DNA of 60,227 nucleotides, counting the filler, from Hausera hauseri (lineage: Eukaryota): assembly GCA_046269625.1 (NCBI GenBank). It is 10 parts of 10 records of this genome, joined end to end, with 100 filler letters (N's around TTAATTAATTAA, not from the genome) between each part and the next. Parts side by side here need not be neighbours in the genome. Positions count along the whole stretch, not along the records: positions 21,587 to 33,368 come from JBJURY010072216.1; 9 more parts are not named here. The stretch is one strand, 5' to 3'. Each line of letters opens with the position of its first letter. Positions within the stretch are counted from its first letter, which is position 1. The notes beneath the pieces were generated by a model. The model saw only the letters and a list, made by a program, of their open reading frames with translations, had not been told where the DNA came from and did not search any database. Below, one piece after another: positions 4,635 through 49,688 of the stretch. Both the position numbers and the translations under genes were made by a program.

Positions 4635-4734
4635 NNNNNNNNNNNNNNNNNNNNNNNNNNNNNNNNNNNNNNNNNNNNTTAATTAATTAANNNNNNNNNN
4701 NNNNNNNNNNNNNNNNNNNNNNNNNNNNNNNNNN
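4635..4734. other. Artificial contig-joining spacer (same spacer at 9254-9353, 13869-13968, 21487-21586, 33369-33468, 37621-37720, 41973-42072, 49589-49688, 55339-55438)
   Basis: 44 N + TTAATTAATTAA (stops in all six frames) + 44 N, nine times. Confidence 0.99.
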
Positions 4735-14131: not shown

Positions 14132-14575
14132 CTATGCTAGCTTCAACATCGTTTGCAGTAACAATTTCATGATACTTTCATCCTTCGCTTCCTTTGTGTC
14201 TACTGTTTTATCTACACTTATTACTTCGTTCGACGTGCTTTGACTGTGCGCCTTAGCTTCTGCTATCCCTTTAGGTTTACTTATCTCCCGTTTCTCACAT
14301 GTTATCATTGTAGTTTGTTTTCCTATTTCGTCTGGATTTTCCTTTCCTTTAACTACTTCTGTTAACTGTTTTCTTAACTTTGTGATCGTTTCCGCTTTCT
14401 CGGCATTTTCTTCTTCTAGTCTGGCGGAATGATTTTCCACTTCTCGTATCATTTCTTCTTTTTCTCGTACTTTGCCTTGGAGTTCATTAACTTCCATATC
14501 TACTTTTCGTTTGGCTTCGGTTAATTTTGCTACCATTTCTTTATCTTCTTCAACTACTGTTATTGCGCGTGGCAT
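14132..14575 (-). CDS. Charged coiled-coil ORF between pol and env
   Basis: E/K-rich heptad pattern, same strand and base skew as pol. Confidence 0.55.
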   Translation of the reverse strand: MPRAITVVEEDKEMVAKLTEAKRKVDMEVNELQGKVREKEEMIREVENHSARLEEENAEKAETITKLRKQLTEVVKGKENPDEIGKQTTMITCEKREISKPKGIAEAKAHSQSTSNEVISVDKTVDTKEAKDESIMKLLLQTMLKLA

Positions 14576-14623
14576 ACTTTCGCCACGTGCTCCGGCTTCA
14601 GCGACCTTCTTTTCTTTTAGTTT

Positions 14624-17600: not shown

Positions 17601-17897
17601 AGATGGTCTTCTATGTCCCCCTTTGTAAATATCAGGACATCGTCGATATAAGCGAGCGCGTAGTCTTGCATTCCCTCTAACACGATGTTCATTAGGGACA
17701 TATAAGTAGCGGGTGAGCCCTTCAACCCGAACGGCATCACGTTCCACGTGTATAGTCCTGTGTGGGTACAGAAAGCGCTCTTCATCTTCGCTTCTGGCGA
17801 CATTGGGCGTTGTGAAGTAAGTCGTGCCGTCTAACATTCCTAGAATATCATCGATTAACGGCATGGGGTAGCTTACGTTAGCCGTAATGGCGTTCAA
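14624..17897 (-). CDS. pol: Gypsy pol: RT - RNase H - integrase plus ~300-aa acidic/charged C-terminal extension (RT disrupted at 5' end)
   Basis: MPFGL, YIDD, YTDAS/EKEA/TDHK/ADLLS, HHCC (HDNLGH..CEVC), SLDL/VTDNG/NERQH DDE triad. Confidence 0.97.
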
Positions 17898-17908
17898 GGC
17901 CCGGTAAT

Positions 17909-19720
17909 CTACACAAAATCTGTGGCTGCCGTCTTTTTTGACACTATAACGACCGGGAACGGTCTGGTCCTCTCGATTATACCGGCTTGTAACATTTCTT
18001 CTACAGCCTTTTCTACTATTTCTCTATTCCCTAATGGTGTTCTATATGGTTTCAGACTTATGGGCGCATGGTCTCCTGTCTCGATTTTCATCATAACCGT
18101 TTGTGTCCGCCCAAGCTCCATGTCTGATAACGCAAACACGTCTGCGTGTTTCCTGACGAACGTTTCTATTCTTTCTTGGTGTACTGGTTCCACTTTTAAT
18201 GTTTCCAGTAGTTTCCTGGTTCTTTCATTATCTTGTGTTATTTCGGCCACTACCTTGCCTCGTTTCTTTCTCCAAAGTCCTTCTCGTATTTCTTTTAGTA
18301 CATTGTCTCGATGTAGTCTTCTCTGCTGTCTTTCTTCTGCTTCTATACTTGATCGTATGTCTGGTTTCCTTTCTCTTTGGTCTTTTCTCTCACCATTGAA
18401 AATTGCTTCACATTTCATTACTTGTGGTTTTTCTACTTTTGCTATGATACAGCCTTTTTGTAATGTAATCGTTTTTCCTGTGTGGTTCATCACCATCACC
18501 GGTATTTCCTTTTTTTCGTTTAACTTTACTAATCCGCATATAGTTTCTAGCCCTGGTTCATCAATTATTTCCTTCTCGTCTAGCGCTGTTATCGTTATGT
18601 TCTCCCCTTCTTGCCAGTATTGGTTCTTCTTCATTGCTGCTATTACTATATTAATCGAATTCGGTTTCATGGTGATCTTCTGTTTCACCCGTATAATCGA
18701 GGCGATGTGGATATCATCTTCTAAGTCCACATATTCATCTTCTACCCTTATTTTCTTTAGGTCGAAGTAGATACGAACCTTATTTTTCCTCAGAAAATCT
18801 CTTCCTATTATGGCACTTCTACACATATTCTTGATCACTAAAAAGTTATGTCTCATCACTTTATTTCCGATCTTGAATTCTAGTTGGGTTTTTCCTAACA
18901 CCTTTAATGCACTCCCCGATACTGATCTTAAGTCGATGTTTTGTCTCACCAATTTGCTTGGTCTTTTCAGCATTTTGTAAACCCTTTCACTGATAATACT
19001 CACTTGGGCTCCTGTGTCAATTAAGCATCTTACTCTGACTTTCCCGAAGTATATTATACATGAACTCGGATCTTCTGTACAGTTTATTTCGTATCTTCTT
19101 TTTAGTTTCTCCCTTCCTTGGTTGTTGCTCCAATCTCTGTTTTTATTCGTTACTTCGGTTTGGTTTTGTAGTTGTTTCCTTGCATTCGTTGTCGTTTCTA
19201 TTCGTTGTTGGGGACAGGGTCGTTGTTCTTTGGGTTTTGGTGTATGGTTGTTAACTTCCTTCTTGTATGTGGGAATGGGTGGGATTTGACTTTGGGTTTT
19301 GTTTTCTACTGTTTCCTCGGTGTATTGCCTGTTCCTAGTTTCATCTATTTCCATTGGTTCCGGTTCTGGTCTTTTGTGTTCGTCGTTGTTTCTGTTTCTG
19401 TGATGTTGTATATCTTCGCTTATTGCTCCTCTTCTGTTTTGATACCATCGTTGTCTCGTTCTCACTGGTGTTTGCTTTCCCTTTCCGTTTTCCCAGTGTC
19501 TTTGTCTCGGTTCTCTAGGTACATGATAACATTTGTTGCTTCTTGGGTTTATGTTTCTTCTCGTAATTTCATATTTTCTATTGTTCGGTTCCTGGTATGC
19601 CCTGTAATTTCTTTTCATAAATTCTCTCTTGTTATCTCTTTTCGGGATTGCTCTTCTACAATTCACTTCTTTTGGTTCTCTTCGTCTCATAATTCTATTT
19701 TCATATTTATCTTCTTTCAT
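17909..19720 (-). CDS. Gypsy gag-pol linker, aspartic protease and RT N-terminus
   Basis: CLIDTGAQVSII, AIIGRDFL, IETGDHAPISLKPYRTP..EMLQAGIIE. Confidence 0.95.
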   Translation of the reverse strand: MKEDKYENRIMRRREPKEVNCRRAIPKRDNKREFMKRNYRAYQEPNNRKYEITRRNINPRSNKCYHVPREPRQRHWENGKGKQTPVRTRQRWYQNRRGAISEDIQHHRNRNNDEHKRPEPEPMEIDETRNRQYTEETVENKTQSQIPPIPTYKKEVNNHTPKPKEQRPCPQQRIETTTNARKQLQNQTEVTNKNRDWSNNQGREKLKRRYEINCTEDPSSCIIYFGKVRVRCLIDTGAQVSIISERVYKMLKRPSKLVRQNIDLRSVSGSALKVLGKTQLEFKIGNKVMRHNFLVIKNMCRSAIIGRDFLRKNKVRIYFDLKKIRVEDEYVDLEDDIHIASIIRVKQKITMKPNSINIVIAAMKKNQYWQEGENITITALDEKEIIDEPGLETICGLVKLNEKKEIPVMVMNHTGKTITLQKGCIIAKVEKPQVMKCEAIFNGERKDQRERKPDIRSSIEAEERQQRRLHRDNVLKEIREGLWRKKRGKVVAEITQDNERTRKLLETLKVEPVHQERIETFVRKHADVFALSDMELGRTQTVMMKIETGDHAPISLKPYRTPLGNREIVEKAVEEMLQAGIIERTRPFPVVIVSKKTAATDFV

Positions 19721-19803
19721 CTGTACTGGTTTAACACTTTCGTTTCTAGTTCTCCTTGTATTGTTCTGGTGGGCCCTTACTGTTCTCCTGCCCTGCGTGA
19801 GCC

Positions 19804-20971
19804 CTAGTGCTGAGCAGGACTTCCGTTTCCCTGCTGTGTCTGACTTCCAGTATCTCTTCGCTCGTTTGTATCACTTGACCTACAGACTCTGGCAAAGTGT
19901 CCTTCTTTGCCGTGCTTGTAGCATAGTCTACTATTCTCTGTCTTCTGTCTAGGATTGTTTGGTTTTGTTGCTTTGTTTCTGCATTCTCTTGTCATGTGTC
20001 GAACCTTTCCGCATCTATAACACTGCATTCTCTTTTCGACTTCGTGAACTGCCTTTCTGTCTTCGAACCATCTTTATCTATGTTGTTCATGTTCATGTGG
20101 CATTCTTTGCCGTCTGGGACTTCCATTTGTTCTTCACTTCTATCATCGTATTTCTCTCTACCCAGTCTCATGTTAAATCTCTTACTGGTTTTCTTCTTCG
20201 AGGGCTGTTTGTATGGCCGCTTGAATTGTCTTAGGCTTATCTTTCATTAACTTGATTTTAATTATCGTGTTTCACAACCCGTCCGTGAAGATTGATATCA
20301 ATATCTGTCCTATTTCTTCTGTCATTATGGTTTGGCCTGCGTATGCTTCCTCGGCCAAGTTCAACATCCTGTCTCCATAAAGTTGAACTGACTCTTCCTT
20401 TTCCTGTTTGATTTTCCATAGTGCAGCAATAGTATATTGCATGTCACATACTTCGGCGCACCTATTTGCTAATGTCTTTTTAAAATCTTCCCATGTCTCA
20501 TCTGGGTGCGAACTGAACCTTCTTCTGATGAAATCGTTTGCTAGCGCATCTGAAGTCATGTAAGCTAGCTCTTTCTTTTCTTCTTCAGTAGCCTTAACAA
20601 ATATGAGTACTTCTCAATCTGTGAGATCCAGGTCTTGAATGCCTTGGTTTCCTTTCCACTAAATGTTTGAACAAATGTTCTTATGTTCTGGTGTCTACTG
20701 TTCATGTCCACTTTAGTCACCATTGTTTCTATTTTATCCAACGCCTTCCTGACCTTTCTTCTTTTCCCAAACCTGACTTTATAGGATGAAGTTTCCCTTT
20801 CTTGACTGGGGTCTGACCTCCAATCTGTAAATGCTCTACCATTTTTCTCATGTCTTCATATGTTCCTTCATGGCACCATATTCTGCCATCATAGTATCTA
20901 GTTGTTGCGGTATGGCAACAATTCTTTCTGCCACGGCAGGAGGTGGAGATTCCATTTTGTCTTCGATACAA
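19804..20971 (-). pseudogene. gag: Gypsy gag (capsid + two CCHC zinc knuckles), fragmented
   Basis: TWEDFKKTL, MHR-like IKQEKEESVQLYGDRM, IFTDGL; CYRCGKVRHMTREC and CYKHGKEGHFARVC. Confidence 0.9.
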
Positions 20972-21586: not shown

Positions 21587-22512
21587 TAAGGACAAAACCC
21601 GAAGAGACAGTTAAAGTAAAAGTATCGTCGGACAGCATGGACGAGAAAGAACACTAGTTTACTACGCGCTACTCCGTAAGGAACGTGGTACAGTGGCTAA
21701 TGAGTAATGGTTACGCAAACCAACTGAACTATAGACCCTACTTTAGAGGTAGAATATTGGACGAACTGGAGAAATAAATAGACGTCGGAATTATCCCAGG
21801 CGAAACGAATCGAATAATAGTAACGGTCGCCACAGAGGAGACAAAAGAAGAGGCCACAAGGAAAGCTAAAACAGATCAGTGTGTAGGATGAATCATGGGA
21901 GTTCGAGATGCAGCAATGTACTTTGAATATTTGCAAACGGACGAAGAAAAAGAACAATATGATAAGAATTTAGTAGCACCCGACGAGACCGCATCGGTTA
22001 TAGCGAAACAGAAGCGTTCCGTTGGTAGACCGCACAAAACACGAGAAGAAATTGATTATAATGGAGACTTAATTAGAGAATTGAAGCAAATGTCCATATC
22101 AACCTTTAGTGCAGAAAACGAAGAACTGAATGAACTTATGAAAAATTTGATACGCATAGTAAATCATTCCAGTATCTGTGGCGAAATATTAAATGAAAAA
22201 GAGAAATCTATATACAATGCAGCCAAAACAATGAGAGATTTCCTATGTAAATTATCGAGAAGCACCTTAAGTGATGAATCAGTGATCGAAAAGATTATGG
22301 TAGACAACACCATAGAAGAGTTAAGGAAAGTGCTATTGTATTTGGCCATAAAAACAAATCCAACTCGAGAAAATTAATTTAATAAAGCCACTAGTTTAGC
22401 GCGGAAAGCTGGCAGAAAATTACCCCGAGAAGTAAACTGGTATAAGTTATTCGAAAAAGAAGAACATCAGAATAAGGCCCCCTTTAGCAATAGTAATAGT
22501 ATATTCGAAGAC
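21587..22512 (+). pseudogene. C-terminal part of ORF1 (unknown domain preceding the glycoprotein)
   Basis: Homologous to 45239-46050 (GVRDAA.YFEYL, KQKR.VGRP.KT, NTIEELRKVLLY.A.KT); same frame as 22513 ORF; the TAA at 22375 is GAA in copy B. Confidence 0.75.
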
Positions 22513-24609
22513 ATGTTACGAAATTTAACTGGGAATAATTGGGGAAATGAATCAAACTGGCTAATTAATTTCCTAACTGTGATGATGTTAATAAGACACA
22601 TGGGAGCGGTTACAATATGTGACTGTGACAAATTCAGATTTTGCCAAAGATATTCATTGATGGATTTGGAAATGTGCAAGGATGCGAGACCACATAAATT
22701 AGAAACAAAAGAAAAAAGATACTTACTATATAAGCAACGGGCGTTAGTTTCATTGGATGGGATAGAATGCATGTTACGACGATCTCGCAGTATTTTCTAT
22801 TGTGGATTAATACACGGACATTCATCCATAATCAAGCCGACGACCCCACTAATTCCAATGAACTTAGAACGCCAGCATTGTAAGCAGGCTAGAGAGACAG
22901 GCAGGCTGAAGTGGGACGGCATTGAATTAGAAATGCAGCAAGGGAAAATAATCAGAGCATACAAAGTAGCGGCAGGAAGATAAGATATGCATACGGGTCG
23001 CTGTAACGGCGCAGAATACGATACTGGAAAAGGATAAGATTAGACATAGTGGTTGTGGATTTCTACGAAACCGAGATGCGCCCACAAAAAGTTATGTTTT
23101 ATAGCGTTACTAAGCTCTATACGGAAAACCAAAAGTGCCACATCCAAGACTGCACCTGTGTTTTTAGAAGTTCGGTAGTATTTTGGGAATCTCCAGCTAA
23201 GACCGATTGCAATTTTAACAAAATTAATGAACTTAAGTTTAACGAGACGACAGGAAAACGCTACGTAAGTAATACGGATACAAACTCAAAAACACGAGAA
23301 GATGTAGCGGAACAGCCTACACGTACCATATTAAAATCCGATACTCACGGGTTAAATTTTGTGAAGAAAGATGTACACACAAAGTGTGATGTAGTAATGT
23401 ACGCCACCAATTATGAAGCATTCTTTGTAGCTGAAACCGAAATAAATACCAGAACGTTCAAGCTTGAGACTCAAGATATTCGAATTGAAGATTATTTGTA
23501 AAATATAGACGATCATTTCTACTACAAGGGACAGGCCGGAATTGCTGAGTTATACTATAAGATGATAACGAACGACTGCAAACTAGACTTAGAAGTCATG
23601 AGAACCAAACTGGCCTTAATATATGCTAATTCCAAGTTAGCGTCACGAATAATTCCGATGAAAGAAGGCGTTTTTGGACAAGTGACCGGAGAAGTTCTGC
23701 TGACTTCCGAATGCGAGAAGGATGTACCTATTAATGTAGAAGAGAAAAGGTGCATTTAAGAACTTCCAGTGATATATAAGGACATACGGAGATTAGTGAT
23801 GTCGATTACGAGAGTATTACTGGCAAACTCTACCTAACCGACGATTCTGAAAGATTGTAAGACCAGTCTGGGAGAACCAATGTTTAGACGTAGCGAAACC
23901 GATTGGGTAAGCTTACCAAACGGTGGTATAATTACGCCGCCCACCAAGTTAACTGGAACGAACTTAATAAAAGGAATAACCGATAATAAGTTTCAAGATA
24001 CAGCAGCAAAAGGCATTTACCGACCGAAAGAAGTGGAGGCATTTAGACAATTTCTCGCTTTCCCACTCCAGCGCACACATGAACTAAACAGAGCTATGCA
24101 TACAATATTGGAGGATTCACGCTATCAAGCGAAATAGGAATCGTTACTTGGCGTTAACTAATATCAAAAAGTCACTACTGGAATACTGTATAAAATTTGC
24201 GGAAGATTTCTGATATTCGGACAAGCCGCATCAGGATTCCTAGCAATTTACTTCTTAATTCAACTGGTTAAAGCGATAATTCAAGCGGTCATAAATGGAT
24301 ACGAGATCTACACTCTAACAGGATTCTCATGTAAAATTTTAACAGCTGTTATCACACCTTTCGGTAAATTCTTAAAAGCGGATGTGGAACGACATGTTGG
24401 CTATCATAATCGAAAACGTAAAAAGAAACATGTTGTTACAAAAGTAAATTCATATATATATCAAGGCACGAAGAGATAACTCGGATGATGACGAACCTAA
24501 GGGAGGAGAAGCCGTCTTAAAGACAAATAGACACAAAAACTATTCCGTTATAAAACCACCAGTACCAATATTATCGCCAAGTGCACCTACATATGAAGAC
24601 TGTGAGTAA
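22513..24609 (+). pseudogene. env: Chuvirus/jingchuvirus-like glycoprotein (env), copy A, several stops
   Basis: Signal WLINFLTVMMLIRHMGA; CDC..YSLMDLEMC; IEC..FYCG..HSS; AAG..GRCNG; GQVTGEV..C..RCI.ELPV; TRVL; KGIY..FLAFP; TM region FLIFGQAASGFLAIYFLIQLVK..INGYEIYTLTGFS. Pattern recalled from chuviral glycoproteins. Confidence 0.85.
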
Positions 24610-24615
24610 CAATCT

Positions 24616-27600
24616 ATGAGCTCATATCAAACGGATATCTATAGAAAACCGTTCAGCCTGGAAGATCCTTATAAGGGAACAAAACACTACGGAATATTGC
24701 GTAAGGCACACGAAACGAAAAGAACAATTGTCCCATATCGTCTCTCTGCAGTCGACGACCATGGAATAATTTATTCACCCAGAATTCCTAGGCCGAACGA
24801 AATACGATCAACATTCTCAAGAGACCATGAGATGCAGAATTTCAGGGACCCAGAAATACAGCCACCAGTTAGAAGTCACGAAACGGAAAACGTCAATTGT
24901 ACGAACAATAAACTGTACCTAAATGAAGAGCTAAGACAGTTAATCGACCAGCCAGTTGCGACCACTGAAGTTAGAATTAACGGCTATAAGGTCTCGACGA
25001 TTCCACACCCAAAGATAGCGCCAAATTGCTATGATACGGTAATCGAAGGTAAACCCTTCGCAAAAATTCACTTAGAAGATTGGGAAGTTTACGCATTGAT
25101 AGAGACAGGATCCGAGATATCACTGATGAAGCATGACTCAATACCACAGTCCCTACGAAAACAAGTATATCCACTTCCCACAACAGACCCAGGGAGCATC
25201 GGGGCTTTTGGACAGTTGTCGAAAAGAAAATTCCGATGGAAGCCAGAAATGAGCATAATGGGACAATCTTTTCACCACGAATTCTCAGTAATTGCACAAT
25301 TAACGGATGATGTGGTATTAAGGTGCGATTTATTGAGACAACTGCCGAATATAGCAATAGACGTCCATGCAGTGGAAAAGTAATAGAATTCGGCCCGATA
25401 AAAGGCGTCAAAACCACCAAGGATAGGCAAATTGGAGAAGTATGGATCCCAGTAGATGAGAACGTTCCACTTAGACCCGAGGTATTAATATATGCTCAGA
25501 TACGTCAAGATGACGACCAACCAGTGTATTTCGAACCAGAGGAATCGTTAAATTCAAGCATCGCACTCAGTAACGTATTAACAAGAGTATCGACGGGCCG
25601 TGTACCTATTAGGATAGCTAATAATGTACCAACTCCGATTAAACTGTATGCCAATACCACTTTGGGTAATACATATAGAGTATCGTCAATAACTATTGAA
25701 GAAAAACCTTACAAATGTGCCGAATTTCCACCTCGCGTTGATACTAAATTTTCATCAGAAGCATACTGTCGATTTTACGAATTACTTTCTCATTATAGCT
25801 CAGTCATCGCGAGAGACGACGAAGACATTGGCAGAGCCAAAGCCTTGAGACTAACAATTCCAGTTAAGAAAAAGCCTGGCTTCAATGATGAAATAGAATT
25901 AGAGGATCAAAAGATGCCGAAATGGTATCCCCTCCGCACTCATTAAGGCCGGATATAACGAAAGAAGTCGAACGAATGCTAAAGGCCGACATAATCAGAC
26001 CAAACTATAGATCTTGGTATTCACCTATTTCATGGTCAAGAAAAAAGGTACCACAAAGCATCGAATTTTGTATTGATTACCGAGCATTAAACACACTTAT
26101 GATGAAAAATTCTTTCACATTTTCATCAGTAAAAGAAGCCCTAGATAGACTTTCCGGAGCTAAATGGTTTACCACGCTCAATCTGCAATCCGGATATTGG
26201 CAAGTAGAAATAGAAGAAGAAGATCGTTATAAAACTGCGTTTAAAACACACAACGATGCATACGAATTTAATGTCATGCCATTAGGGGATAACTACTGGA
26301 CCAGCCATTTGTACTCGAATGAAGAACAAGATGCTAATGGGTCTGGAACATGCGTTCGCGTATCTGGACGACGTAATGAATGCATCAAAGACAGAAGAAG
26401 AACATTTAAGGGATATTGAGGACACGCTCATGAGAGTGGAGCAAGCCGGATTGAAATTAAACCACAATAAATGTAAATGGGCTCAAAACGCTGTATCTTA
26501 TCTCGGACATATAGTTGGAGAAGGAGGATCGAAACCTGATAAATCTTTGTTAAGTAAGATATCAGATTCTATGGAGCCCCAGAATCAAAAAGAGTTGCGA
26601 CACTGGTTAGGTTTATGTGGATATTACGCCACTTAATTACCGGATAATTCAAAAAGAAATGCGTCTTTGTATCGTTTACTTAAAAAGGGAATTAAATGGA
26701 AATGGACGAACGTAGAACAAAAAGCTTTCGACGAAATGAAGAAAATCTTAACTAGCGAACCCGTTTTAAGATACCCTGATTTTAACCTTCTGTTTATAAT
26801 TAAAACGGGTGCTAGTGAAGAGTCATTGGATATGATTTAGCACAAAAACGTGAGGATAAAGAACTAGAACACCCAATCGCCTATGGAGGACGATCACTAA
26901 AGAAGGCTGAAAAGAATTATTCGGTCACGGAATTAGAAACGTTAGCTTTAAAAGACAGAAGATTATAATTGTTACGAATCACAAAGTAGTTACAACTTAA
27001 AAAGGTAGAGCAAATAACCCAACGTGTAAGTTCAACCGATGGATCGAAGAGATCTCACGGTATAACATCGAATTTCAATACAAACCCGGAAGCAAACATG
27101 TCGATGCCGATGCACTATAAAGGCTTAAAACTAAAACGGGCGCAATCACTGTGATGAGAAAGTCTCGGCTCGAAGAACTAGTGGACAGACAACGAGCTCT
27201 AACATTGGATAAAACAATAAAAATTTCTGCTGAACAAAAGAAGGACAACGTTATACAACAAATCATTGAGTTTGTCGAAAATGAAACAATACCAAAGGGC
27301 CACCAATTGCGGAAACATGTACGCAGACATGGTCATAAATACTGCATAACGGGCAACACAAGCCATGAAAATGTACTGTATTATGAGCGGAAAGGCCGGA
27401 AGTTGGTAGTCATACCAAAAGGATTACGCACAGGAATACTAATGGCCGAACATGATTCATACTTAGCCTGACACATGTCATGGAAGAAGACATTAGAAAG
27501 AATATTAAATAAATATTACTGGTCGAACGTATACATCGATGTGAAGAATTGGGTAAGTGCTTGCGAAGTATACGCAACCAAACAAAAAAAGTGAAAAACT

Positions 27601-28560
27601 ACGTTCTCGAACATAAACCAATAAGCGTGCCGGACAGACCGATGCAAGCGATGTCCATGGATATTGTAGGACCGTTACCTATAACTCATAAGAATAATAA
27701 ATACATTCTGACATGTATAGATCGCTTATCTCATTTCGTCGAGCTTGTGTCATTAGTGGACCAAAAAGCTGAGATATTGGCTAAGGCCGTAGTAAGGAAA
27801 ATTATCTGCTGATTCGGACCTCCCGAACAAATTCTGACAGACCGAGGAAGAAACATTACGTGTGAACTATTAAAAAAATTACTAAAATATTTGAAATTGA
27901 AAGATTAACCACAACAGCTTACCACCCGCAATGTAACGGAATGGTCGAACGAACGAATGCAACAGTTATATGGATCCTATCAACAGTATTTGCGAAAGGC
28001 CAGAAGGATTGGGATGAATTTTTCGAAGACACGTAATTTGCCATAAACACTACATCACACACTGCAACAGGATTTACCCCATTTTTATGATGTATGGCAG
28101 AGGCGGTACTACGCACAGACTTAGGAATGATACCATATACAGTAAAAGCGGACGATTCAGAGCAAAATTTTGTTGAAGTATTACAGACGAAGCTACAAAA
28201 GTGTTTGGAAATAGCCAAAGAATTGTCCAAAAAATATCAAGAACAATTTAAAAGGCAAGACAATAAGAAGGCTAAACCACATGATCTAGAGCAAGGAAAT
28301 TGGGTTTATGTACATTACCCAGTCGCAAAGAAAGGCACATCTCTGAAATTCACTCGAACAGGCAGAGAACCTTACGAAGTTATCAGAACCACACCAACTA
28401 CAGTCTATATTAATAAAAATGGCAAAGAGGAGGTCATATCAATACAAAGAGTAGTTAAAACGGAAATAAGACCGAATAAACGCTATAACCTGCACCCAAA
28501 CAAAGAAAATCCAAGTCAAACCAAGAAGGAAAAGAAAACGTCATCGATAGTAACCAGACC
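24616..28560 (+). pseudogene. pol: Gypsy-type pol (PR-RT-RH-IN), copy A, multiple stops/frameshifts
   Basis: ALIETGSEISL, FCIDYRALN, WFTTLNLQSGYWQV, YLDD, WLGLCGYY, HPIAY..YSVTELE, MSMDIVGPLP, ILTDRG, YHPQCNGMVERTN. Confidence 0.95.
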
Positions 28561-29931
28561 GATATATTATGCACAAATAATTCTTGCACTATCGCTAATC
28601 GCTTCATATGTGCTAAAGGCAAAGACACAATGGACAATGGATTTAGTAGAAGTTATCCACGGAGTTATGAAATATTTCCCAATTGAAAAAGAATGACATG
28701 CGGAAAGACGCAAAGATATACAGAATTTACAGTCGCTCAGAGTCTACGATATGAATTGGATCAAGCCTTGCGCCTGGTTCAAGGCAAGTGAATCTGTTAA
28801 GAACCACGCAAAATTTCAAATAATATTTGTGGATCAAACTAGTTCTGCGATGAAGACATGTGATTTTCCGTATGGCGCCTATCAGAGATGTTGCGATTTA
28901 GATTTCGGGCGAACCTATAAATACAAATTTCAAATGTTCTATTATAATCTACCCGGAGCCCAGGCCTATATAATTACCGAATTTGAAATAAGAATGCCTC
29001 AACGCAACGACACAAACCAAGCCAGAACGGACGATATAGTCCGAGATGCCTATCCATTTAAGAGAATCCTAGATTATAACATTATTGGTATCTCTAAAGA
29101 TTTTAAAAACCAATGTATTCGAATTAAGACCAAAATAGAATTGCTGAGAGGCAGACAAATTTCCATCCGATTCATAGCGATACGGAAATCAAACACTCCT
29201 CTGAAATACTGTTATATTGCGCGAGGACAGCAAAATTCGTGCTGCAGAATACCCTTCAAACATGAATACCAATTGCAATTCGATCTGTACAATACTTACT
29301 CAAACGAACCGAGTACCTATCTAAGAGGATACCGTCCAAAGGTCGGAATATGAAAGATTTCCTTTCCAACAACTACGAGAAAACCGTCTACCATTCCAAA
29401 TGCGACTCGTACCACTTATATTCTCCTTTCGAGAAAAATGTCCGAGAGAGCTGAAAAACATGCTTGTTAGAATTTTGGTACGGCATAACAGAATTGTATT
29501 TTATGTTGAGGAAACAGTGGATTACGAAATTAAAATCGAATGTCGCACCTTTATATACCAACCAAATTGTAATCTTAAGGAGGAATAGTCGGGAAATCGA
29601 ATGGAAATCCCTACGATCACAAAATGATATAATGCAAATGACTGAAGATGGTAAAAGACAGAAAACTCTTACAGTACTAAACCTTAACAATGAAGTTCAC
29701 GTAATGCAATATAAAGATACTAGCACCCAACATGCAATTACTACGGAACTTTCTATTGAATCTAATAACTTACCGATAATATCTATATTCAGTTTGTCTA
29801 TTTTCTTTCTTATCATATTAACAGCGACGATTTTCTTACTTTCCAAAAAACGTAATATTCGACGTCAAAATCAACAGAGAGGTAAACGGGTAAAAGGGAA
29901 CCAAGGCGGACTTTATGATAGCATAATCTGA
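28561..29931 (+). pseudogene. Putative type I membrane protein in frame with integrase C-terminus
   Basis: Hydrophobic IILALSLIASYVL, Cys-containing region (28751-29353, same frame after one TGA), then after a frameshift IISIFSLSIFFLIILTATIFLL followed by basic SKKRNIRR. Confidence 0.55.
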
Positions 29932-30033: not shown

Positions 30034-31758
30034 TATGGCCAAAAAAGCTAGGAATCCAGCACACAGTCCTAGATACGACATCGATGACTTCCTACAGCAG
30101 AATGTGGATGTTCTTAAGCCTCCTTCCAAAAGCTTATATCGTCAAATCAGAGAAAGCCCGAAAAACCAAACTTATGTAGAAATCGATCGAGAGAGCAAAA
30201 TACCAAATGGATTGAAATGTGGCTTAGAGGAAAATCGATTAATCCGATTATATGCAATGCGAAGCTCAAGGGATGCACGAGCATACCTATTGATAGATAT
30301 GATCCCATATGAACCGACACATCAGTAAATGTACATATATGTCGCTGATGGAGAAATACGGCACAGGATCGTAGGACAATCCTGGAGTACTCAAAGTGGT
30401 CAACAATGGAAAATTAGCACATATGAGCTATGTTGCTCTAGCCTCATGGATTACGCTTTGGAGTTCAGAATCGCAGAGCTTCCAACCAAACTTATGTTTA
30501 AATTAACCCCACGAACAGAGGTGATGAGGCCACTACCACCTATACTGTGTATACAAAAGCCCTCAGAGGATGAGATAGAACGAAACGGAGAATCCTTCAG
30601 ACTACTTACAGATGGCAGGAATACTCGAATTCAAGCTGTAAACTATGGAGAAAAGGATGATGGATGGTACACCTCAATCGAAGTCTCTATCCGAAATATA
30701 AATGGAGAAGAGATTATAAACAAAATAATTGCACCTAGAACTAAGGTAAAGGATACATTTCCCGACGTTTCTGGAATTACAAAATTACGACTCGAGGAGG
30801 GTAAAGATATCCAAGAAATTCAAGAAGACATAAGCCATATCTTATATGGATTCATTGTAACCGGATTTAGAGTACACGAGATACTAGAAAGGTTAGGAAT
30901 TCGACAGGAATATATAGCCGGAATTCGTGAATTAAGTCGCAATCCGACAGTCGTAAGTCGAACGGAAAGCATTCTAATGAGAAAAAGAGGATGTCTACTT
31001 CCTCCAGCGTCACGAGAATTCCAATTTAAGATGATATTAGAAGCTATGAATGGTGAACGCTTCCATATCCCTAAACTAATGTCAGCGAGTCAGAGGACGA
31101 AACTCATAAGAGACGTGTATGGTTCTCTACGACGGGAACATGTGTGGAAACCCGGAAACCCTATACAGAATGTGATATCTGATAGTAACCCAAAAATTTT
31201 GATACAGAAATTTCGAAAAGGAATTAGTGAATACCCCATACATAGACAGATTGAACCTCAGGGGCATAATAGCCTCCAAATAACCGTTCAAAACAGCTCG
31301 GTCAAGTTGTCCAAACAGAAGGGATCAAACGGGGATAATCAAGAAACCCTATCGACCAGCCGGAATCGAACCGAATGCGGATCAACCTCTCAAAAAGCAA
31401 CAGAAAGAGTGGAAATCATGGAGTCGAACCTCAGAGAAGACAAAAGACAAAATTCTCCTTCTTCGAAAATAACAGTAGAAAGAAAAAGAAGACCAGTAAC
31501 AACTCTGCCGAACAAATGAAACCGATTGCTAGCAGCCGCACACCGGTTGATAAAGAAGAGACGGAAAATTCCAAGGAGAGACCGAAAATACAAGAAAACG
31601 GAAATTTTAACGAACCGAGAACGCAACCCCTCAGTTATGAACCGCCCAGAACAGAACTTAATGTTCTTCGAAGAAATTGGGAAGAACCGATCCCTATTAT
31701 TGTGGTCAAATTTGGTCAAGTTAAGGAATACACCAGAATGCTCCTAAATGCAAAATAA
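30034..31758 (+). pseudogene. Accessory ORF containing a REX4/ISG20-like DEDDh exonuclease fold (~30626-31120), catalytic residues absent
   Basis: EVSIRNINGEEIINKIIAPRTKVKDTFPDVSGITKLRLEEGKDIQEIQEDISHILYGFIVTGF parallels REX4 RVSIVN..G....D..V.P...V.D..T.VSGI....L..G.....VQ.EV..IL.G.I.VGH; the 29942 and 30329 ORFs are one frame split by a single stop. Confidence 0.7.
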
Positions 31759-31922
31759 AAGAGGCCGTATTTTATGTCTCCACCGTTCCAAGAAGAATCG
31801 TAAGCGGAAACGGATACGCCCGAGAAGACACGACCATTGGCAGATATTTAGCCCCGATATTTCAATCAAAAAACGGAACTAAACGACTAACCCTCCCAGT
31901 AGATACCCAAGTCCGGATTCAG

Positions 31923-32450
31923 TTGAAGAGCCAATATAAGAAGACAGGAATACCAGATCTAGACCAACAGGAAACCGTTAAATGGACATTGATAACCGTA
32001 TTGGATGACTCCAGGAAAAGCTCTATAGACCATAAACAAAACAATTATATAGATGAAAATGTTGTAGATATAGATGGAGGTGAAAAGGATGAATGTCCCA
32101 TTTGTGACGCAAACCTATACCAAGGATTTGTGGTGTTAGATAATAAGGATTGCACCCATAAATACTGTCGGTACTGCTTAGAAACGTGGACCCTGAAAAA
32201 TGGGAAGACGACCTGCCCAGTATGTAGGGCTGAAGCTACGAGGTTGCGTTACTTCTCCAGTAGAGAGAGTAAGAAAATAGTGGAGATATTCCTTCAAAAA
32301 CCTACTTCAGCATACCGCTTCGAATTGCGATCCCCGCGAGATAAGTCTGATTCGGAAGCGGACTTACGCGGACGAATGAATCGATTTCGCGGCACCTCTT
32401 CTGACGCAATGGGTACATCTGAGAGTGCCGTTCAGGTAGAAATGTTGTAA
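31923..32450 (+). CDS. C3HC4 RING finger accessory ORF
   Basis: CPIC-x14-CTHKYCRYC-x12-CPVC. Confidence 0.9.
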   Translation: MKSQYKKTGIPDLDQQETVKWTLITVLDDSRKSSIDHKQNNYIDENVVDIDGGEKDECPICDANLYQGFVVLDNKDCTHKYCRYCLETWTLKNGKTTCPVCRAEATRLRYFSSRESKKIVEIFLQKPTSAYRFELRSPRDKSDSEADLRGRMNRFRGTSSDAMGTSESAVQVEML

Positions 32451-40145: not shown

Positions 40146-40195
40146 GTATGGTTTCTCAATTATTTTGCTAGATGAAATGTTGCTTGCAAAGAATA

Positions 40196-40729
40196 GCACC
40201 TAATTTCTAGTCAGGTTTTTACAAGTTTTACAGGTTCTACCGGTGCAAAAGATTATGATGATTAATAATATGAAAAAATGTTTGCAAACAAATCTAAGAT
40301 TATGTAATATTGGCTTCTAAATATTACGTTTGACACTTTTTCAATTTTCCCTAGCATGCAGAGAAGGTTTGAAATTTCATAAAATTTTTTGCTTCTTTTT
40401 CAACCAATATTTTACTAAGGTTGAATTTCCAGTTTGTCGTTTTTGTTATGAGCAAAATATTAAACGGTTATTCAATAGGTCGACAAACCATCACGAAAAC
40501 ACAATTAGTCAAATATTAATGGTCGAAAAAGTAGCAAAAATTTTGTTAATTCACAAAATTCTTCTGTATGTTAGGGAGAAAATTGAAGAAGTAAGAAATG
40601 ACATATAATCAACAAACACAGCAAAATCTTAGTTTTGTTTGCAAAGGTTTTTCATATTATTAATCATCATAAAATTTTGTACTTGTATAACCTGTAGAAC
40701 TTGTAAAACTCCGACTAGCATTAAGGTGC
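40196..40729. mobile_element. Intronic MITE/foldback with ~110-bp imperfect TIRs
   Basis: 40196-40305 is the reverse complement of ~40620-40729 (ttatgatgattaataatatgaaaaa / tttttcatattattaatcatcataa). Confidence 0.8.
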
Positions 40730-42072: not shown

Positions 42073-43083
42073 TGAAGTGGGCGCATTATTCGCCACTCTG
42101 ATTGGTACGCGGCCTGTTGATACTCTTGTCAAAACATTGCTGAGTACAATGTTTGAATTAAGCGATTCTTTCGGTTCGAAATATACTGCCTCGTCGTCAT
42201 CTTGACGTATTTTGGGCACATATGAGTACTTCAGTTCTGAATGGTATGTTTTCATCTACTGGAATCCACACTTCTCCGAACTTTCTATTTTTGGTGGTTT
42301 TAACCCCTTTTATTGGACCAAGTTTTATCAACTTGCCTTCATTGAAATCGATTGCTATATTGGGTAGTTGTCTCAGTAAGTCACATGCTAACACTACATC
42401 ATCCGTTAATTGATCCATTGCTGAGAATTCATGATGGAAAGAATGTCCTATTATGTGAATTTCCGGTTTCCAACGGAATTTACGTTTCGATGATTGTCCG
42501 AAGACTCCGACGCTTCCTAAATCCGTTGTGGGAGGCGGATACAATTTTTTCCGTAAGAATTGTGGTATTGAATCATATTTTATCAGTGATGTTTCAGATC
42601 CTGTGTGTATTAGCGCATATACTTCCCAGTCTTCCAATTGAATTTTTGCAAATGGCTTTCTTCAATTATCGTACCGTAATAATTTGGTGCTATCGGAGGG
42701 TGTTGGATCGCGGACACTTTGCAACAGTTAATGGTAACCTCGGTAGTTCTACCTGGCTAGTCGATTAACTGTCTCAGTTTTCCCATTAGGTAAAATTCAT
42801 TATTCGCACCATTCGTGTTTTCTATTACTTGGTTTCTAACTGGCGGATGAACATCTTGGTTCTGGAGATTGTGTGTCTGACGGCTTGTGGCAAATATTGA
42901 CTGAGTTTCGTTTGGTCTAGGTACTCTAGGTGAATAGATTATACCGTGATCGTCGACCGCTGAGCGACAATGTGGGATAGACGGTTTTCCTACCTTACGC
43001 AGCACTCCAGAGTGCTTTGTTCCTTCGTAACGATCCTCTAGACTGAACGGCTTCCGATAAATTTCTGTCTGATACAAACTCAT
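42073..43083 (-). pseudogene. pol N-terminus/protease, copy B
   Basis: MSLYQTEIYRKPFSLED, VYALIHTGSETSL, DVVLACDLL; homolog of 24616-25640. Confidence 0.9.
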
Positions 43084-43086
43084 AGA

Positions 43087-45200
43087 TTACTTTTTACAAT
43101 CTTTATATACAGGTGCCGTCGGCGTCAGTATTGGTAATGGTAATTTCACAACAGATTAATTTCTATGTCTGTTCGACTTAGGTATAGCGTCTCCTCCATT
43201 AGGCTCGCCATTGTCTGAGTTATTTCTTCGTATCTTATTAATTATAAAATTTCGCTTGAATAGGTACTTTCTTTTACCGATTTTGATTTTGATAGCTTAC
43301 GTGCGTTCTACCTCAGTTTTCCATCTACTTTCGTCGTATGACTTTAAAAATTTGCCGAAGGGCGTGACAATAGCCGTCAAAATTTTGCACGAAAATCCTG
43401 TCAAGGTGAATATCTCGTATCCATTTATGATTGCTTGAATTATAGCTTTTATCAGTTGAATTAACAAGTATATCATTAGAAATCCTGACGCAGCTTGTCC
43501 AAATATCAGGAATCTTCCCCAGATTTTATATAATATTTCCGTACTTATTTTTTTATAATAGCCAGCACCAAGTAATTATTCCCATTTCGCTTGGTAGCGC
43601 GAATCCTCTAATATTATATGCATTGTTCAATTCAGTTCGTGCGTACGTTGACGAAAAAAGGCGAGAAATTGTCTGAACGCCTCTACTTCTTTTGGTCGGT
43701 AACTATCCTTCGAGGCCGTATCTAGAAATTTATCATCGGTTATTCCTTTTATTAAGTTTGTCCCTGTCGATTTGGTAGGCGGCGCGATTATGCCACCGTT
43801 TGGCAAACTTACCCCGTCAGTTTCGCTACGTCTAAACATTGGTTTGTCCAGGCTGGTCTTGCAATTTCTCAAGATTGTTGGTTGGGTAGAATTTGCCAAC
43901 AATACTCGGGTAATCGGCGATACTAATCTTGGTACCTCCTGGTACATCACGGGAAGTTCTTGTATACACCTTTTCTCCTCCACATTAATAGGTACGTCTT
44001 TCTTATCACACTAATATGTCAGTAAGACCTCTCCGGTTACCCGTGAAAAACACTTTCCTTTATTGGAATTATTGGTGATGCCTACTCGGGATTGACATAT
44101 ATTACGGCCAGCGTAGTTCTCATGACTTCCAAATCCAACTTGCAGTCATATGTTATCATTTTGTGATATAGCTCGGCTATTCCTGCTTGTCCCTTATAGT
44201 AGAAATAGTCGTGTCTGTTTTTCAGGTAATCTTCGATCCCAATATCCTGAGTCTCGAGCTTGAACGTCCTGGCGTTTATTTCCGTTTTAACTACGAAAAA
44301 TGCTTCATAGTTGGTGGCGCACATTATAACATCACATCTTGTGAGTACATCTTTCTTCAACAACTTCAGTCTGTGGGTATCAGAGATCAGTATCGTAGGT
44401 ATTGACTGTTCAGCTACATCTTCTCGTGTTTAGAGTTAGTTTCTGTGCTACTTATGTACCGTTTCCCCATTGTCTCATTAAATTTAAGCTCCTTAATTCT
44501 AATAAAGTTTCAATCGGCCTTAGTCGGAGGTTCCCAAATTAATACGGAACTTCGGAATGGGCATGTGCCATCCTGAATGTGGCACTTATGGTTCTCGGTG
44601 TACAGTTTAGTAACCTTATGGAACATCACCTTCTGTATGCGTATTTCAGTTTTATAAAAGTCTACTACTACGATGTTCGACTCTAATCATTTTCATGTAT
44701 CGTATTCTGCACCATAACAATGCGCGGTGCGCATGTTTAGTCTTCTTGCTGGTACTTTATGTACTCTGATTATTTTCCCTCGCTGAATTTCTAGTTTTAT
44801 GCCATCCCATTTTATTCTCGCCGTCTCTCTAGCTTGCTTACAATGCTAAAGTTCTAAATTCATCGGAATTGGTGGGGTCATTGGCTTTATTATTTATGAG
44901 TGTCCATGTACCAGTTCACAATGGAAGATGTTGCGAAATCGTCGCAACTTACATTCTACTCTATCCTATGTAATTAGTTCGCGTTGTTGACATAGTACGT
45001 AACTTTTCTCTTTTTTTCTAATTTGTGTGGTCTCGCGTCTTCGCACATTTCTATGTCCATTAATGAATGTTTTTGGCCAAGTCTAAATTTGCCACAATCA
45101 TGTACTGTGAATGCACCCATTTGTCTTATTAACATTATCACGATCAAAAAGTTGATTAGCCAATTTGACTCACTTCCTCTGCGATTTCCGTTTACGTTTC
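43087..45200 (-). pseudogene. env: Chuvirus-like glycoprotein, copy B
   Basis: WLINFLIVIMLIRQMGAFTVHDC, ATNYEAFFV, RCIQELPV, SPITRVLL; ends ILTPTAPVYKDCKK*. Confidence 0.85.
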
Positions 45201-48200
45201 GCTGCAGATCTTCGAATGTATTGTTACCTAAGAAGAATCTACTCTGACATACTTCTTCTTCCTCGAATAACTTCCCGAGGTAGGTTCCTGGCAGCCTTTC
45301 TTGCCAAGCTAGCATCCTTGTTGAATTCATTTTCTGGGTTTGTGTTAGTTTTGACGGCCTGATATAACAACACTTTTCTTAATTCTTCTATGGTATTTTT
45401 CGCCATAATTATCTTAATCACCACTTTATCGCCATTACATGGCCTTTGCGACCTTCGCTTTCTCATCCAATATATCACCGCCGAGACTAGAGTGGTTTAC
45501 TATTTGTATCAAATTTTTCATAAGTTCGTTCAGTTCCTCATTATCCGTACTGAAGCTTGGTATAGATATTTGCCTCAACTCTTTGATTAGGTCTCCATTA
45601 TAGTCGATTTCTTCTCATGTCTTCCGTGGTCTACCAACAGGACGCTTCTGTTTTGTTACTGCAGGTACACTGCCGTTAATGGGTATCAAATTTTTATCGC
45701 ATTGCTCCTTATCTTCATCTTTCTTCAGGTACTCGAAATATACTGCTGCATCTCGGACTCCTATTACTCGACCTACCCGCTGCTCTGCTTTAACCTTCCT
45801 TATAGCCTTCTCCTTTGTTTCGTCGATATTAATGGTTACCACTACCCGATTTGCTTTACCTGGAATAATACCGACTTCTATTAATAGTTCCTATTCATTT
45901 AGTATCCTTCCTCTAAAATAAAGTCTATAGATCGGCTCATGGGCGTATCCATTGTTCTTTATCCACAATAATACATCCCTTACAAGGGAGCGCCTCGTGA
46001 ACTCTTGTTCCTTCTCGTCCATTCAGTCAAAAGCTATCTTTACTGGGACCATCCCTCTGCCTTTGCCTTTAAGATTTTATTACATTCTTTAAGTAAAAGC
46101 TTAGGTACCGTACTAAAAATCGTACCTTTGTTAGCTAATTTAGTTAGAGTGGAGACCAACTGTATTAATTGGATTTTAGTGAGGTTTACTTCAATGAACT
46201 GAATTAAATCTTTCTCGGTTTGTACTGGATCCAAAAGAATTCCCACGTTAAATCTTTGGTCCCAACAATATACCTCCATTTCACCCAATCGTATGGGAGT
46301 TTTCGGGTTTCCAGCAATTATTGCGTCTAAATATGCCTCCCAATCTGGTTCGTTTTTATCGTTCGGCAGTTGGTAGTCCGTTGACGGTGTATCGGTTGGT
46401 CCACTCGCACCTGCAATCTTTATGGTTTTTCTGAGTTTCTGTAGCTTCTGTTGCAATTGGACCATTTTCGTCGTTCGGAAACAGTTCCCATTAGCAGAAA
46501 ATTGGTGTAACAGTGTTAACATCGAACATAATTCTTCAGCCGAAATCAGTCCTACTCTTGAGAGCTTGTTAGTTCTGAAGTGACAATTCTTTTCCACCTT
46601 TGCACGAACTGCGACTTGTCAGCCCTTTCTGCTTCTGTAAGGGCGTATTTGTTTTTATAGACTTCGAGTTCTCTAGCTAGTTCGTCTAATCTCATCGCTC
46701 TTTTTTGGTCTTAATGCAAGTCACTTCGACCTGCTGTATCTGCTACAACAAATGTCTTAATTTTGCATCACTGACTTCTGCCATTTTCGCCATCAATAGC
46801 AATAATTCATACATCGCGTTAAGACTGTTTGAATCTGGATCTATTGCTTCTAATCATTTTTTACAAATTTTATCTCTTCGAAGCTAAGGTGGTGATCATT
46901 CTTTATTTTAATTAGTTCACTATGATGCCTTTGATCCGTTCCATCCCTCCATTCCTGTGGACGATGTAAGAACTTCACCGCTTCTTCAACGATTGACCTA
47001 TATTTGGGACAAAAGTCCAAAGTTTTAAGAAGTCGAATCGAGATTTTCTTGATAGGCTTGGCGGGAAAATGTCGGATTCCTTTCAGGCGGATATCTCTCA
47101 ATCTCGGATAGAAGTCCTAAGTCGCATTCCGTTTCCGCGTAAAGTTTGTTTCTTCAATCATCTTATACAGATCATCTAGTATCATCATTTCTTGTTTCTT
47201 TTCCAAAAAGTCCAATTGACGTAGTGCCTCAAATTGGGTTCGGATGTCGATTTCTGCTCTCACCGTATCTAGATTTCGGCCGTCTTCTTTCAGTTGCTTT
47301 TTCACTGTATGTGCGCTCTCCGGAAATTCCTTTTTTCGATTGGCTACTAATTAATCAACCTTGTTATTACTTCGGATCATTCTTTCAACTGATTCGTGAT
47401 TTCTGGTTTTGCCAGTATTGCTTTGTCTAACATTCTGTCAGCGTCTTCTAGTTCATTATTTGGACCTTTAGTAATATCGATGACCCGATGGGCGTAGTCG
47501 AATTCCTCTTTATATTCGTCGAATTCAAAAATACAAGCCATAATTATTTTTTGTATTTCGTCATAGTTTGTGAACATAATTCTATTCCTTAGACCGTATA
47601 TTTGCGACCTTTTTTCGGTTTTAATCTTGATCCGATTTTCTAGACTCGTATATTGTTATTATGACGTACAAGCGACTTTTTTCATTACCAATAAGGGTGG
47701 AATATCTAATGAGTTTATGCGCAACGTCTCTAGGTTACTTCCATCTCGTTCCTTGACCGGTTTTCTTCTAAGTCGTTCGACTATTGCAAATGTAATTTCG
47801 TTCATGACACGTTCCAAATTACGTACTACTCTAATTTCGGATTGGCTTCTAATGTAGTTAATAGTGACTGAGCTTAGTTGATTCTATCTTCGACGCTTTG
47901 GGTCGTTTTATCCCACGCTTCTGGGATTCTCATCTCACTTTTTATCCAGGCTGCCAGTTGGTGTTTCCATTTGACTAGTGTTACTTTTGTCACTTCCTCC
48001 GGTGGATCTAAGTTTACATCTTCGCTTAGTTTCTCTTCACTATATAATTTCATCTTTTTATATAACCTCTCTACAAACTGTTGTTCCTTGCCAGAAATAT
48101 CCACTTGATCACTTATTGTTTTGAGTTTCTCGAGATTCACTTGCACGACCTCTGTGTTGAGACAATTTATTTTCATCCTTTTTAATTCGTCGGCATTTTT

Positions 48201-49252
48201 CCACGAGTGTCTGATTTTCCACTATTTAGGATCAAGTTTCTCCTCCTGTCCTGTTTCCTCTTCGCAAGTAGGTAAAGGACATATATCATTTATTTCATAT
48301 ACAGATTTCGTTAGCTCGTCCATCTCGCCAGGCGTAACAACTTTAATTTCTGGAGTGTCTGAAGCGAATTCTATGTCGTTTTCCAATGCGATTTCAGTCT
48401 CTCTCCTTGTCTCTGATTTCTCCTTAATTATTGGGAATCTCAAAAGATCCTTACGTTTCCGTCTCAATGATGGGTTATGTCCTCTATTCTTGGTAATTAT
48501 GAGTATTAGGGGTTCCAAAAATTCTTTTTCTTCGTCGATCTCTACCTTTTTGCTTACCTTTTTCACCATGTGTTCTGGTTCCACATCTGAATCTACTTCA
48601 TCCAAGGTCTCGAGTTTTCCTGTTTCGTCTAACTCTTTGCTTGTCGTAGGAATATTCTTTTTTCGTGACACATCCGTAAGGCTTGGTGGAGCGATGGAGT
48701 GTTCATATTCCGTTTCCGGTTCACGCAAGCCATGGTAAACTTCCAATAATCGTAATTTGTGTTCATACTCGTTTCTGGCCACTAAAACTTTAGGGTCTTT
48801 AACATTGGGTTAGGCCTTTAAAAACGTTGCAAGTCTTGTATCTAAATGATCATACCTGTGCATTTACAGAAACCATAAATGGCTTCTAAGTTTTCGTTTT
48901 AAATTACATTAGTTTTGGTAGGTTCCACAAACGAGACACTTCGCGGGTTTGGACAGGATCTCGCTGTGTGTTGGGCGCGAGTCCGGCGCATTCTGCGCGT
49001 AACTTTTAGGTTCTCATAAATTCGTTGAGTCTGTCCTGGTCTCCGTCATATGCTGGTAAATTCAGAGTCAAATGTAAAAATGTCCAACTTTTGCGCTACT
49101 GCTTGATTCTCAACCATGTTTTCAACGTTTATAAGATTTTGCTTAATTGCTTTACAAGTTCTAATGCTTTTATCAGGAACTTTAACTTCAATAGGCTGTC
49201 CAATAGATTCAGCGTTAGTTAAATTCGTTTCGGATAACGTACGTCTGATCAA
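45201..49252 (-). pseudogene. Long fragmented ORF1 (gag-like, helical), copy B
   Basis: Nine same-strand ORF fragments tile the interval between PBS and env; weak capsid-like segment (..T*DFYPRLRDIR). Gag identity inferred mainly from position. Confidence 0.6.
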
Positions 49253-49520
49253 TGTCTTATCTTGTCTATATACTTTATTACGTGTTTCGCGAAAATTTAT
49301 ATTCTGCTTACCGTTTAGAATAAAATTTAAACTATCGACAGACCCATGTCTATCAATATTCGTTCTTGATTCAATAGTATGTCGTTATAATACTCAAGGT
49401 TTTCTTTATATCCCAAATTTTAGTCTCACAAAAATCTACAATCAATTATTTGATGTGTTAGCGCTAATCGCTAATGTGTCGTTACTTTTCACTAAAAGTC
49501 AAGTCTAGCAAGTGCAAACT

Positions 49521-49538
49521 GTCCTGCTAGGGTTGCCA
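49521..49538 (-). promoter_or_regulatory. Primer binding site TGGCAACCCTAGCAGGAC
   Basis: Begins TGG, complementary to a tRNA-like 3' end (GTCCTGCTAGGGTTGCCA), directly after LTR-matching sequence; tRNA identity (Arg-like?) uncertain. Confidence 0.75.
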
Positions 49539-49688
49539 AATTTTAGTAGTTGAAGGTAAGTCCTATTCAACACCCAACTACAACAATANNNNNNNNNNNN
49601 NNNNNNNNNNNNNNNNNNNNNNNNNNNNNNNNTTAATTAATTAANNNNNNNNNNNNNNNNNNNNNNNNNNNNNNNNNNNNNNNNNNNN

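Follow-up and report, generated by a model that had tools for sequence, protein, structure and literature searches.

In a 60,227-nucleotide stretch of Hausera hauseri DNA (assembly GCA_046269625.1; the whole stretch is called the window below), two sequences, A and B, are recognized by gene order and domain matches as copies, both decayed, of a Ty3/gypsy element that is Burro-like and has an env of chuvirus type before pol. [quoted passage not shown] The window is made of 10 contigs joined by N-linkers, and neighbours across a linker are not genomic neighbours. Copy A lies on the contig at 21587-33368 (+), copy B on a separate one at 42073-49588 (-). The two are alignable at the DNA level over 4 kb, with 73-74% identity. 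The contigs, of 11.8 and 7.5 kb, truncate the element in both cases, and no long terminal repeat (LTR) was found inside either of them.

In copy A, protease, reverse transcriptase (RT), RNase H and integrase follow each other in the order typical of Ty3/gypsy elements (Metaviridae), with an integrase of the H2C2 type, and a mononegaviral-type env is located upstream of them, as in Burro. The env matches PF24664 (Monjiviricetes_fusion) with E-values of 9.5e-41 and 4.6e-9; the pol region matches the Pfam families RVP (E 0.004), RVT_1, Integrase_H2C2 and rve, in agreement with tblastn searches performed with relatives. These relatives, indicated by P-numbers, come from a search of 1.84 billion representative sequences, in which the best 150 of 418 matches were listed, and their single open reading frames (ORFs) were used as recorded in the database entries.

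At the junction, copy A reads ILSPSAPTYEDCE and then a stop, with PSAP at 24577-24588 (+), the stop at 24607-24609 and an ATG at 24616-24618. Copy B reads ILTPTAPVYKDCKK before its stop, with PTAP at 43111-43122, the stop at 43087-43089 and the ATG at 43081-43083, all on the minus strand. A first-pass annotation of the window had placed both motifs, both stops and both ATGs correctly, leaving out the strand of B, and had described the stops as adjacent, non-identical codons; they are indeed one codon apart in the DNA alignment. Its description of a motif at the env tail, followed by an in-frame env/pol junction, holds only in part. Env and pol share one frame in B, though stops interrupt it, and are frameshifted in A. 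The helix and PTAP of B are in one frame, but two extra stops (43299, 43158) lie between them. In A, the frame of the env transmembrane helix closes at a stop (24477-24479), and PSAP is found in a different frame, beyond the point, at about 24392, where the alignment to B has a gap of 23 nt.

The six frames of the window contain four occurrences of P(T/S)AP, two of them at the homologous tail site. The exact consensus is present in A and B, in a segment predicted to face the cytosol. As evidence of selection, the two copies are weak, because their tails are 58% identical in protein and the serine of A is a minority letter: threonine is encoded by 830.5 of the 870.6 depth at position 24581. From sequencing run X1, 1292 contigs were aligned to 751 bases around the junction; since 617 of them are less than 90% alike, the family is made of many diverged copies. 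Two decayed copies are no sufficient basis for a late-domain reading, and therefore tails were compared across the whole family.

The segment behind the membrane region was found in 138 of 154 proteins, and 132 tails were kept, after dropping four tails shorter than 20 residues and two cluster mates. P(T/S)AP is present in 22 of the 132 tails (mean of 1000 shuffles 1.13, maximum 6), and YPxL in 35 (mean 1.57, maximum 6, again over 1000 shuffles). Each of the 11 anagrams of P(T/S)AP is found in 1 to 5 tails, and the variable residue of the motif is serine in 10 and threonine in 12, every other residue being present in at most 2. Ectodomains of the relatives contain 1 P(T/S)AP in 49,061 residues. 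PPxY-type motifs are not clearly enriched (7 of 132 tails, against 3.3 in shuffles, with a maximum of 11). When the motif is masked, none of the 231 pairs of P(T/S)AP tails can be aligned, and these tails are scattered across the env tree; repeated selection of the word is therefore indicated. Glycoproteins ending on their own show the same pattern, with P(T/S)AP in 21 and YPxL in 30 of 119 tails. Four of the ten P(T/S)AP-tail proteins checked are named chuvirus glycoproteins, and two further ones are unnamed entries.

The tail was predicted to be cytosolic from simple scales (hydropathy and basic residues) and from the enzymes encoded downstream, as the first-pass annotation had suggested checking. 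In A, the first helix at the end of env has a Kyte-Doolittle (KD) value of 2.16; the second has a value of 1.28, with an unfavourable insertion score, and 9 lysines or arginines are present in the next 30 residues. Taking A, B and eight relatives together, the KD values range between 1.8 and 2.4 for the first helix and between 1.0 and 1.6, with a poor insertion score, for the second, and basic residues mostly come next. Five full-length relatives have hydrophobic stretches before env and behind integrase, and four of them also above the cut-off at the end of env. In the fused chain the linker is placed in the cytosol because protease, RT and integrase must face it. The predicted topology, with a cytosolic Env tail, is held with high confidence.

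A late domain on the glycoprotein tail, as suggested by the first-pass annotation, is thus a plausible reading, with family-level support from an enrichment of about 20-fold and from the predicted cytosolic location; what could not be retained is its foundation on two copies and on a protein end, the motif being located in a linker between Env and protease and not at a terminus. ESCRT binding and budding through the motif are, from these sequence comparisons, fairly probable. Three points weigh on the other side. Of 13 fused relatives, one has PTAP, five YPxL and nine a hydrophobic residue followed by YP; A and B themselves lack YPxL in their tails; and the enrichment was gauged only against references from within the family (shuffles, anagrams and ectodomains).

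The motif could also have served ESCRT-dependent sorting of Env (to endosomes or multivesicular bodies, for exosome loading or for turnover) within the same continuous Env-Pol frame, and not the scission of particles. P(T/S)AP-type motifs occur in cellular membrane proteins too, and the enrichment shows selection for ESCRT-type ligands, not the step that they serve. However, YPx[LIV] accompanies P(T/S)AP in 14 of the 22 tails, an arrangement like the late-domain clusters of retroviruses, and P(T/S)AP is absent from the Gag-side stretches of eight relatives and from the Gag-side frames of B. Moreover, published descriptions give chuviruses three ORFs (G, N and L; PMC13240903, PMC10084718), among which another budding driver is not apparent. 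A role in sorting alone is therefore considered unlikely. Still less probable is that PTAP arose by chance in a linker rich in proline and that A and B share it through descent alone: only two copies with moderately similar tails are available, and the single PTAP of the 13 fused relatives is a count attained by 43 of 1000 shuffles, but the motif sits in the sole segment where the same word is enriched in the family, and aligned copies hold threonine or serine, with no high-share change of a proline or alanine codon among the variants listed.

The continuity of the frame was evaluated from the decay of the copies, from aligned contigs and from fused relatives. A and B are both pseudogenes. Counted over homologous frames, stops number 10 in the 1311 codons of A and 18 in the 1181 codons of B, a few of the latter falling at frame boundaries; none of these 28 stops, in about 2,500 codons, is at a codon shared by the two copies. 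The alignment contains 15 indels, 10 of them frameshifting. Differences between A and B at codon positions 1/2/3 are 62/41/171 in env, 16/10/21 in the PSAP-frame tail, 30/31/61 after the junction and 12/10/48 in the protease; they pile up at third positions, so A and B descend from two once-active subfamilies. When the observed stops are placed at random, the chance of one A/B pair lying within one codon is 0.37, and further pairs are found 6 and 9 nt apart.

In run X1, a base other than that of A at the first position of its stop accounts for 5227 of 5254.5 depth (99.5%, 63 contigs), and in run X2 for 21.4 of 21.4. No variant is reported at positions 24608-24612 among those listed (40 of 249, with a share down to about 73%; the reference is copy A, and B-like copies may be missed). 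The stop at B's codon thus appears not to be fixed in A-like copies.

The top relatives are long ORFs (among the best 150 of 418), with cluster mates of up to 3003 and 4844 residues, and a Pfam protease follows env in 11 of 20 relatives scanned, in five of them together with an RT. In a quick, midpoint-rooted tree of 63 env rows (segments of at least 300 residues; shorter ones and most lower-ranked matches were excluded), A and B belong to a clade of 16 rows with an SH-aLRT value of 100, where env is continued by a protease motif in 11 of the 14 relatives. P0054, considered as a further fused relative, was discarded, as Pfam finds no protease in it.

Because of the decay statistics, the aligned contigs and the fused relatives, env and pol are considered to have been, very probably, one reading frame in this lineage; an ancestrally continuous frame was one of the possibilities raised by the first-pass annotation, and the layout has been published for Burro (PMC6431247). 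The simplest explanation of the junction stops, and a likely one, is independent decay of this frame. Several results speak against the preferred reading. P0008, P0015 and P0018, of the same clade, are unfused as recorded: P0018 stops at the second helix, P0008 diverges from its kin within it, and P0015 has a tail of 45 residues and then ends. Identity to relatives is about 30%, and A and B hang on a long branch (1.62) of a tree that was only a quick one. For a stop at B's codon, the variants listed against copy A give just an upper bound, under about 73%, on the proportion of copies that carry it. Word-based protein searches and a scan of metagenome contigs, both weak as blanks, gave no intact member of the lineage crossing the junction.

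The alternative is that the lineage had split env from pol by a real stop, with Pol produced either by stop-codon readthrough or through reinitiation at the ATG, the other possibilities raised at first. Such a split would account for stops lying within one codon in A and B and for an ATG kept in both. A known leaky-stop context is CAR-YYA, and the six bases after A's stop fit it at 5 of 6 places. The 45-residue tail at which P0015 ends, and a stop at B's codon that is possible in part of the family, point the same way. Such a split is opposed by the private nature of A's stop, by the different codons used, by a context of B's stop unlike any leaky-stop motif known to us and by the absence of a stimulatory structure, since RNA folding after the two junction stops is not above that of shuffles (z 0.44 and 0.04); the 0.37 chance of such a pair counts against it as well. 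A stop followed by an ATG within two codons also occurs off the junction at three more sites (21889, 46025 and, inside the ectodomain, 43629), and 11 of the 14 relatives in the clade are fused. A genuine split is accordingly regarded as quite improbable.

According to the preferred reading of a continuous Env-Pol chain with a budding signal, one polyprotein would be threaded through the membrane of the endoplasmic reticulum. Gag and the ubiquitin-like domain would remain in the cytosol, an internal signal would place the env ectodomain in the lumen, and the env helix would lead the chain back across the membrane, with tail, protease, RT, RNase H and integrase next on the cytosolic side; a second signal and helix would set a second membrane protein at the end of the chain. 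Pol could be packaged through its tether to Env and released by the element's own protease, a processing that we infer. The late domain would be left on the Env tail at the bud neck, where it would recruit ESCRT-I, while relatives likely recruit ALIX through YPxL. The junction stops would be separate nonsense mutations acquired after insertion.

Late domains are usually found on Gag or matrix proteins, and the tail motif has the same consensus as the PTAP/YPxL late domains of retroviral Gag. A membrane glycoprotein whose PSAP binds TSG101 is NS3 of bluetongue virus (PMC7409164); unlike the Env of A and B, it is non-structural and not a fusogen. In hartmaniviruses, which lack a matrix protein, the GP2 tail has been proposed as matrix surrogate with access to ESCRT, its motif being a predicted ALG-2 site and not PTAP or YPxL (PMC6261641). 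Neither case involves a class III fusogen or an Env-Pol chain. That viruses exchange late domains is established (PMC8402826). In the open-access literature, searched through listings and terms, no earlier paper was found on late domains in glycoprotein tails of chuviruses or errantiviruses.

The continuous Env-Pol layout is already known from planarian Burro, where env was described in 2019 as lying in frame between gag and pol (PMC6431247). Burro and GYPSM1, giant gypsy-like LTR retrotransposons of planarians, resemble A and B in the mononegaviral-like fusion Env between gag and pol, the ubiquitin/SUMO-like domain before env, a spacer that separates protease from RT, accessory domains (a RING finger, for example) and the many copies, and in Dugesia japonica decayed copies have stops and frameshifts, as in A and B (PMC6431247). 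Gag, CCHC knuckles, BCL2-like and dUTPase-like domains, LTRs and a size over 30 kb belong to Burro and are unconfirmed in A and B, whose env is about 30% identical to any relative; named Burro elements were matched by description, not by sequence. Section 7 of the Burro account does not mention a late domain (PMC6431247). Errantiviruses with the order GAG-ENV-POL and an env of the HSV/gB type are reported from Nematoda, Bryozoa and Platyhelminthes, and share with A and B the gene order, the gypsy-type pol and the gB-type env (PMC13524379); by eye, the Schmidtea env rows of its supplement 2 look like P0004-P0006. Unlike in A and B, the three genes are treated there as ORFs, and fusion, polyprotein, readthrough, late domain, PTAP and ESCRT are not mentioned in the main text (PMC13524379). 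Glycoprotein G of chuviruses (Jingchuvirales) and its captures by BEL/Pao elements belong to the same family, PF24664, but G ends after the tail or comes behind pol (P0026, P0131), whereas in A and B the tail continues into the protease.

The features recognized in the two copies are reported in Table 1.

Table 1. Position of the features of copies A and B along the window
Feature	Copy	Position	Strand	Remarks
Ubiquitin/SUMO-like domain	A	21604..21834	+	Upstream of env; two stops
Ubiquitin/SUMO-like domain, homologue	B	45810-46046	-	
Helical stretch	A	22060..22476	+	Position of the BCL2-like domain of Burro; predicted helical
Internal signal-like hydrophobic stretch and chuvirus-type (gB-like) env ectodomain	A	22555..24210	+	With stops and frameshifts; colinear with relatives
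Env transmembrane helix (24237-24293) and weaker second hydrophobic helix (24321-24362)	A	24237..24362	+	Followed by a basic stretch
Predicted cytosolic tail, Env-protease linker	A	24393..24606	+	Out of the helix frame, beyond the 23-nt gap; by DNA alignment to B
PSAP, late-domain-like motif	A	24577..24588	+	
Stop private to A and ATG two codons on	A	24607..24618	+	ATG likely an internal Met; B has a sense codon here
Protease, spacer, RT, RNase H, integrase	A	25051..28471	+	Gypsy order; spread over several frames
Second signal-like stretch and second membrane protein	A	28560..29931	+	Behind integrase; helix near 29770
About 1100 codons of Gag-side sequence, ubiquitin-like domain, env, linker, protease	B	42073..49588	-	Contig ends within pol
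PTAP (43111-43122), stop (43087-43089), ATG (43081-43083)	B	43081..43122	-	A has a sense codon at B's stop

By profile comparison and predicted fold, a ubiquitin/SUMO-like domain stands before env in both copies. A profile of A, B and three relatives matches the ubiquitin-like domains of ubiquilins (best E 7e-4), one built from A and B alone reaches E-values of 0.2-0.8 only, and the region has no Pfam match. The model has a pLDDT of 54.5; all Foldseek rows listed show a ubiquitin-like fold, with Rad60 SLD2 at rank 2. The helical stretch behind it aligns weakly to the N-termini of P0004 and P0008, the latter having a Pfam Bcl-2 match, and PDB profile and fold searches, with a low-confidence helical model, gave no significant match to a BCL2-like fold. 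A search of the decayed Gag-side frames of B for retrotrans_gag and CCHC knuckles gave no notable Pfam match; among relatives, Gag domains are found in the env ORF of P0010 (zf-CCHC) and P0013 (Retrotrans_gag). The spacer between protease and RT (25395-25865 in A) resembles that of the relatives, and no Pfam match was obtained for it when a dUTPase-like domain was sought. Past the end of integrase, A has no sequence match to relatives; the hydrophobic pattern there is common to A, P0005, P0006, P0019, P0154 and P0157.

In P0005, P0006, P0154 and P0157, the ORF continues past integrase into a second membrane protein, and the last tails of these relatives share a Y-x-P-P word. A GRP motif, which we take to be AT-hook-like, lies upstream of env at about 22020 (+) and 45630 (-), as well as in P0006, P0007, P0010 and P0154. 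Aspartic protease repeats in tandem were observed in P0154, P0010 and P0004, with up to 7 matched stretches in P0154, separated by ankyrin and C2H2 fingers. The database entry of P0005, a complete Env-Pol polyprotein, names it a hypothetical protein from the metagenome-assembled genome of a Flavobacteriaceae bacterium; its contig was likely animal DNA placed in the wrong bin. The region 30329-32450 (+), which comes after copy A and has the strand skew of that copy, contains a 396-codon ORF without Pfam match and a RING-finger ORF (E 3.9e-8); as Burro bears a RING-type motif, both are possibly accessory genes of the element.

The window also contains a second gypsy element at 14132-20613 (-), env-less in appearance and far less decayed than A and B, with Retrotrans_gag, a 653-codon protease ORF and a 1068-codon ORF for RT, RNase H and integrase. 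The RT of A is 36% identical to it, and 37-44% identical to seven fused relatives. A 549-codon stretch of the host UBR4 gene is found at 38554-40203 (+), with E 2e-48 to human UBR4 chains, which points to a eukaryotic host, likely an animal. About 550 bases at 40187-40738 are self-complementary at 71%, like a decayed miniature inverted-repeat element. Decayed frames without Pfam match, at 1928-7947 (-) and 50188-51160 (+), presumably resemble the DNA polymerase and packaging ATPase genes of Polinton/Maverick elements. The spacers between contigs have the structure N44, 12-base linker, N44, at 4635-4734 and at eight other sites.

If the late-domain reading is wrong, A and B are ordinary decayed Burro-like copies. 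What may be new is the place of the budding signal, on the fusion-protein tails of a whole family. A more general proposal, put forward tentatively and at somewhat less than even odds, is that class III fusion proteins of the chuvirus type bring ESCRT late domains of their own (PTAP for TSG101, YPxL for ALIX) in the cytosolic tail and thereby drive budding in place of a matrix protein, both in Jingchuvirales and in the retroelements that captured them, so that the Burro-like Env would be at once the budding engine and the tether by which Pol is packaged. With the tail enrichment, the way in which chuviruses exit cells can be tested directly, as can the assembly of Env-Pol polyproteins in giant retroelements.

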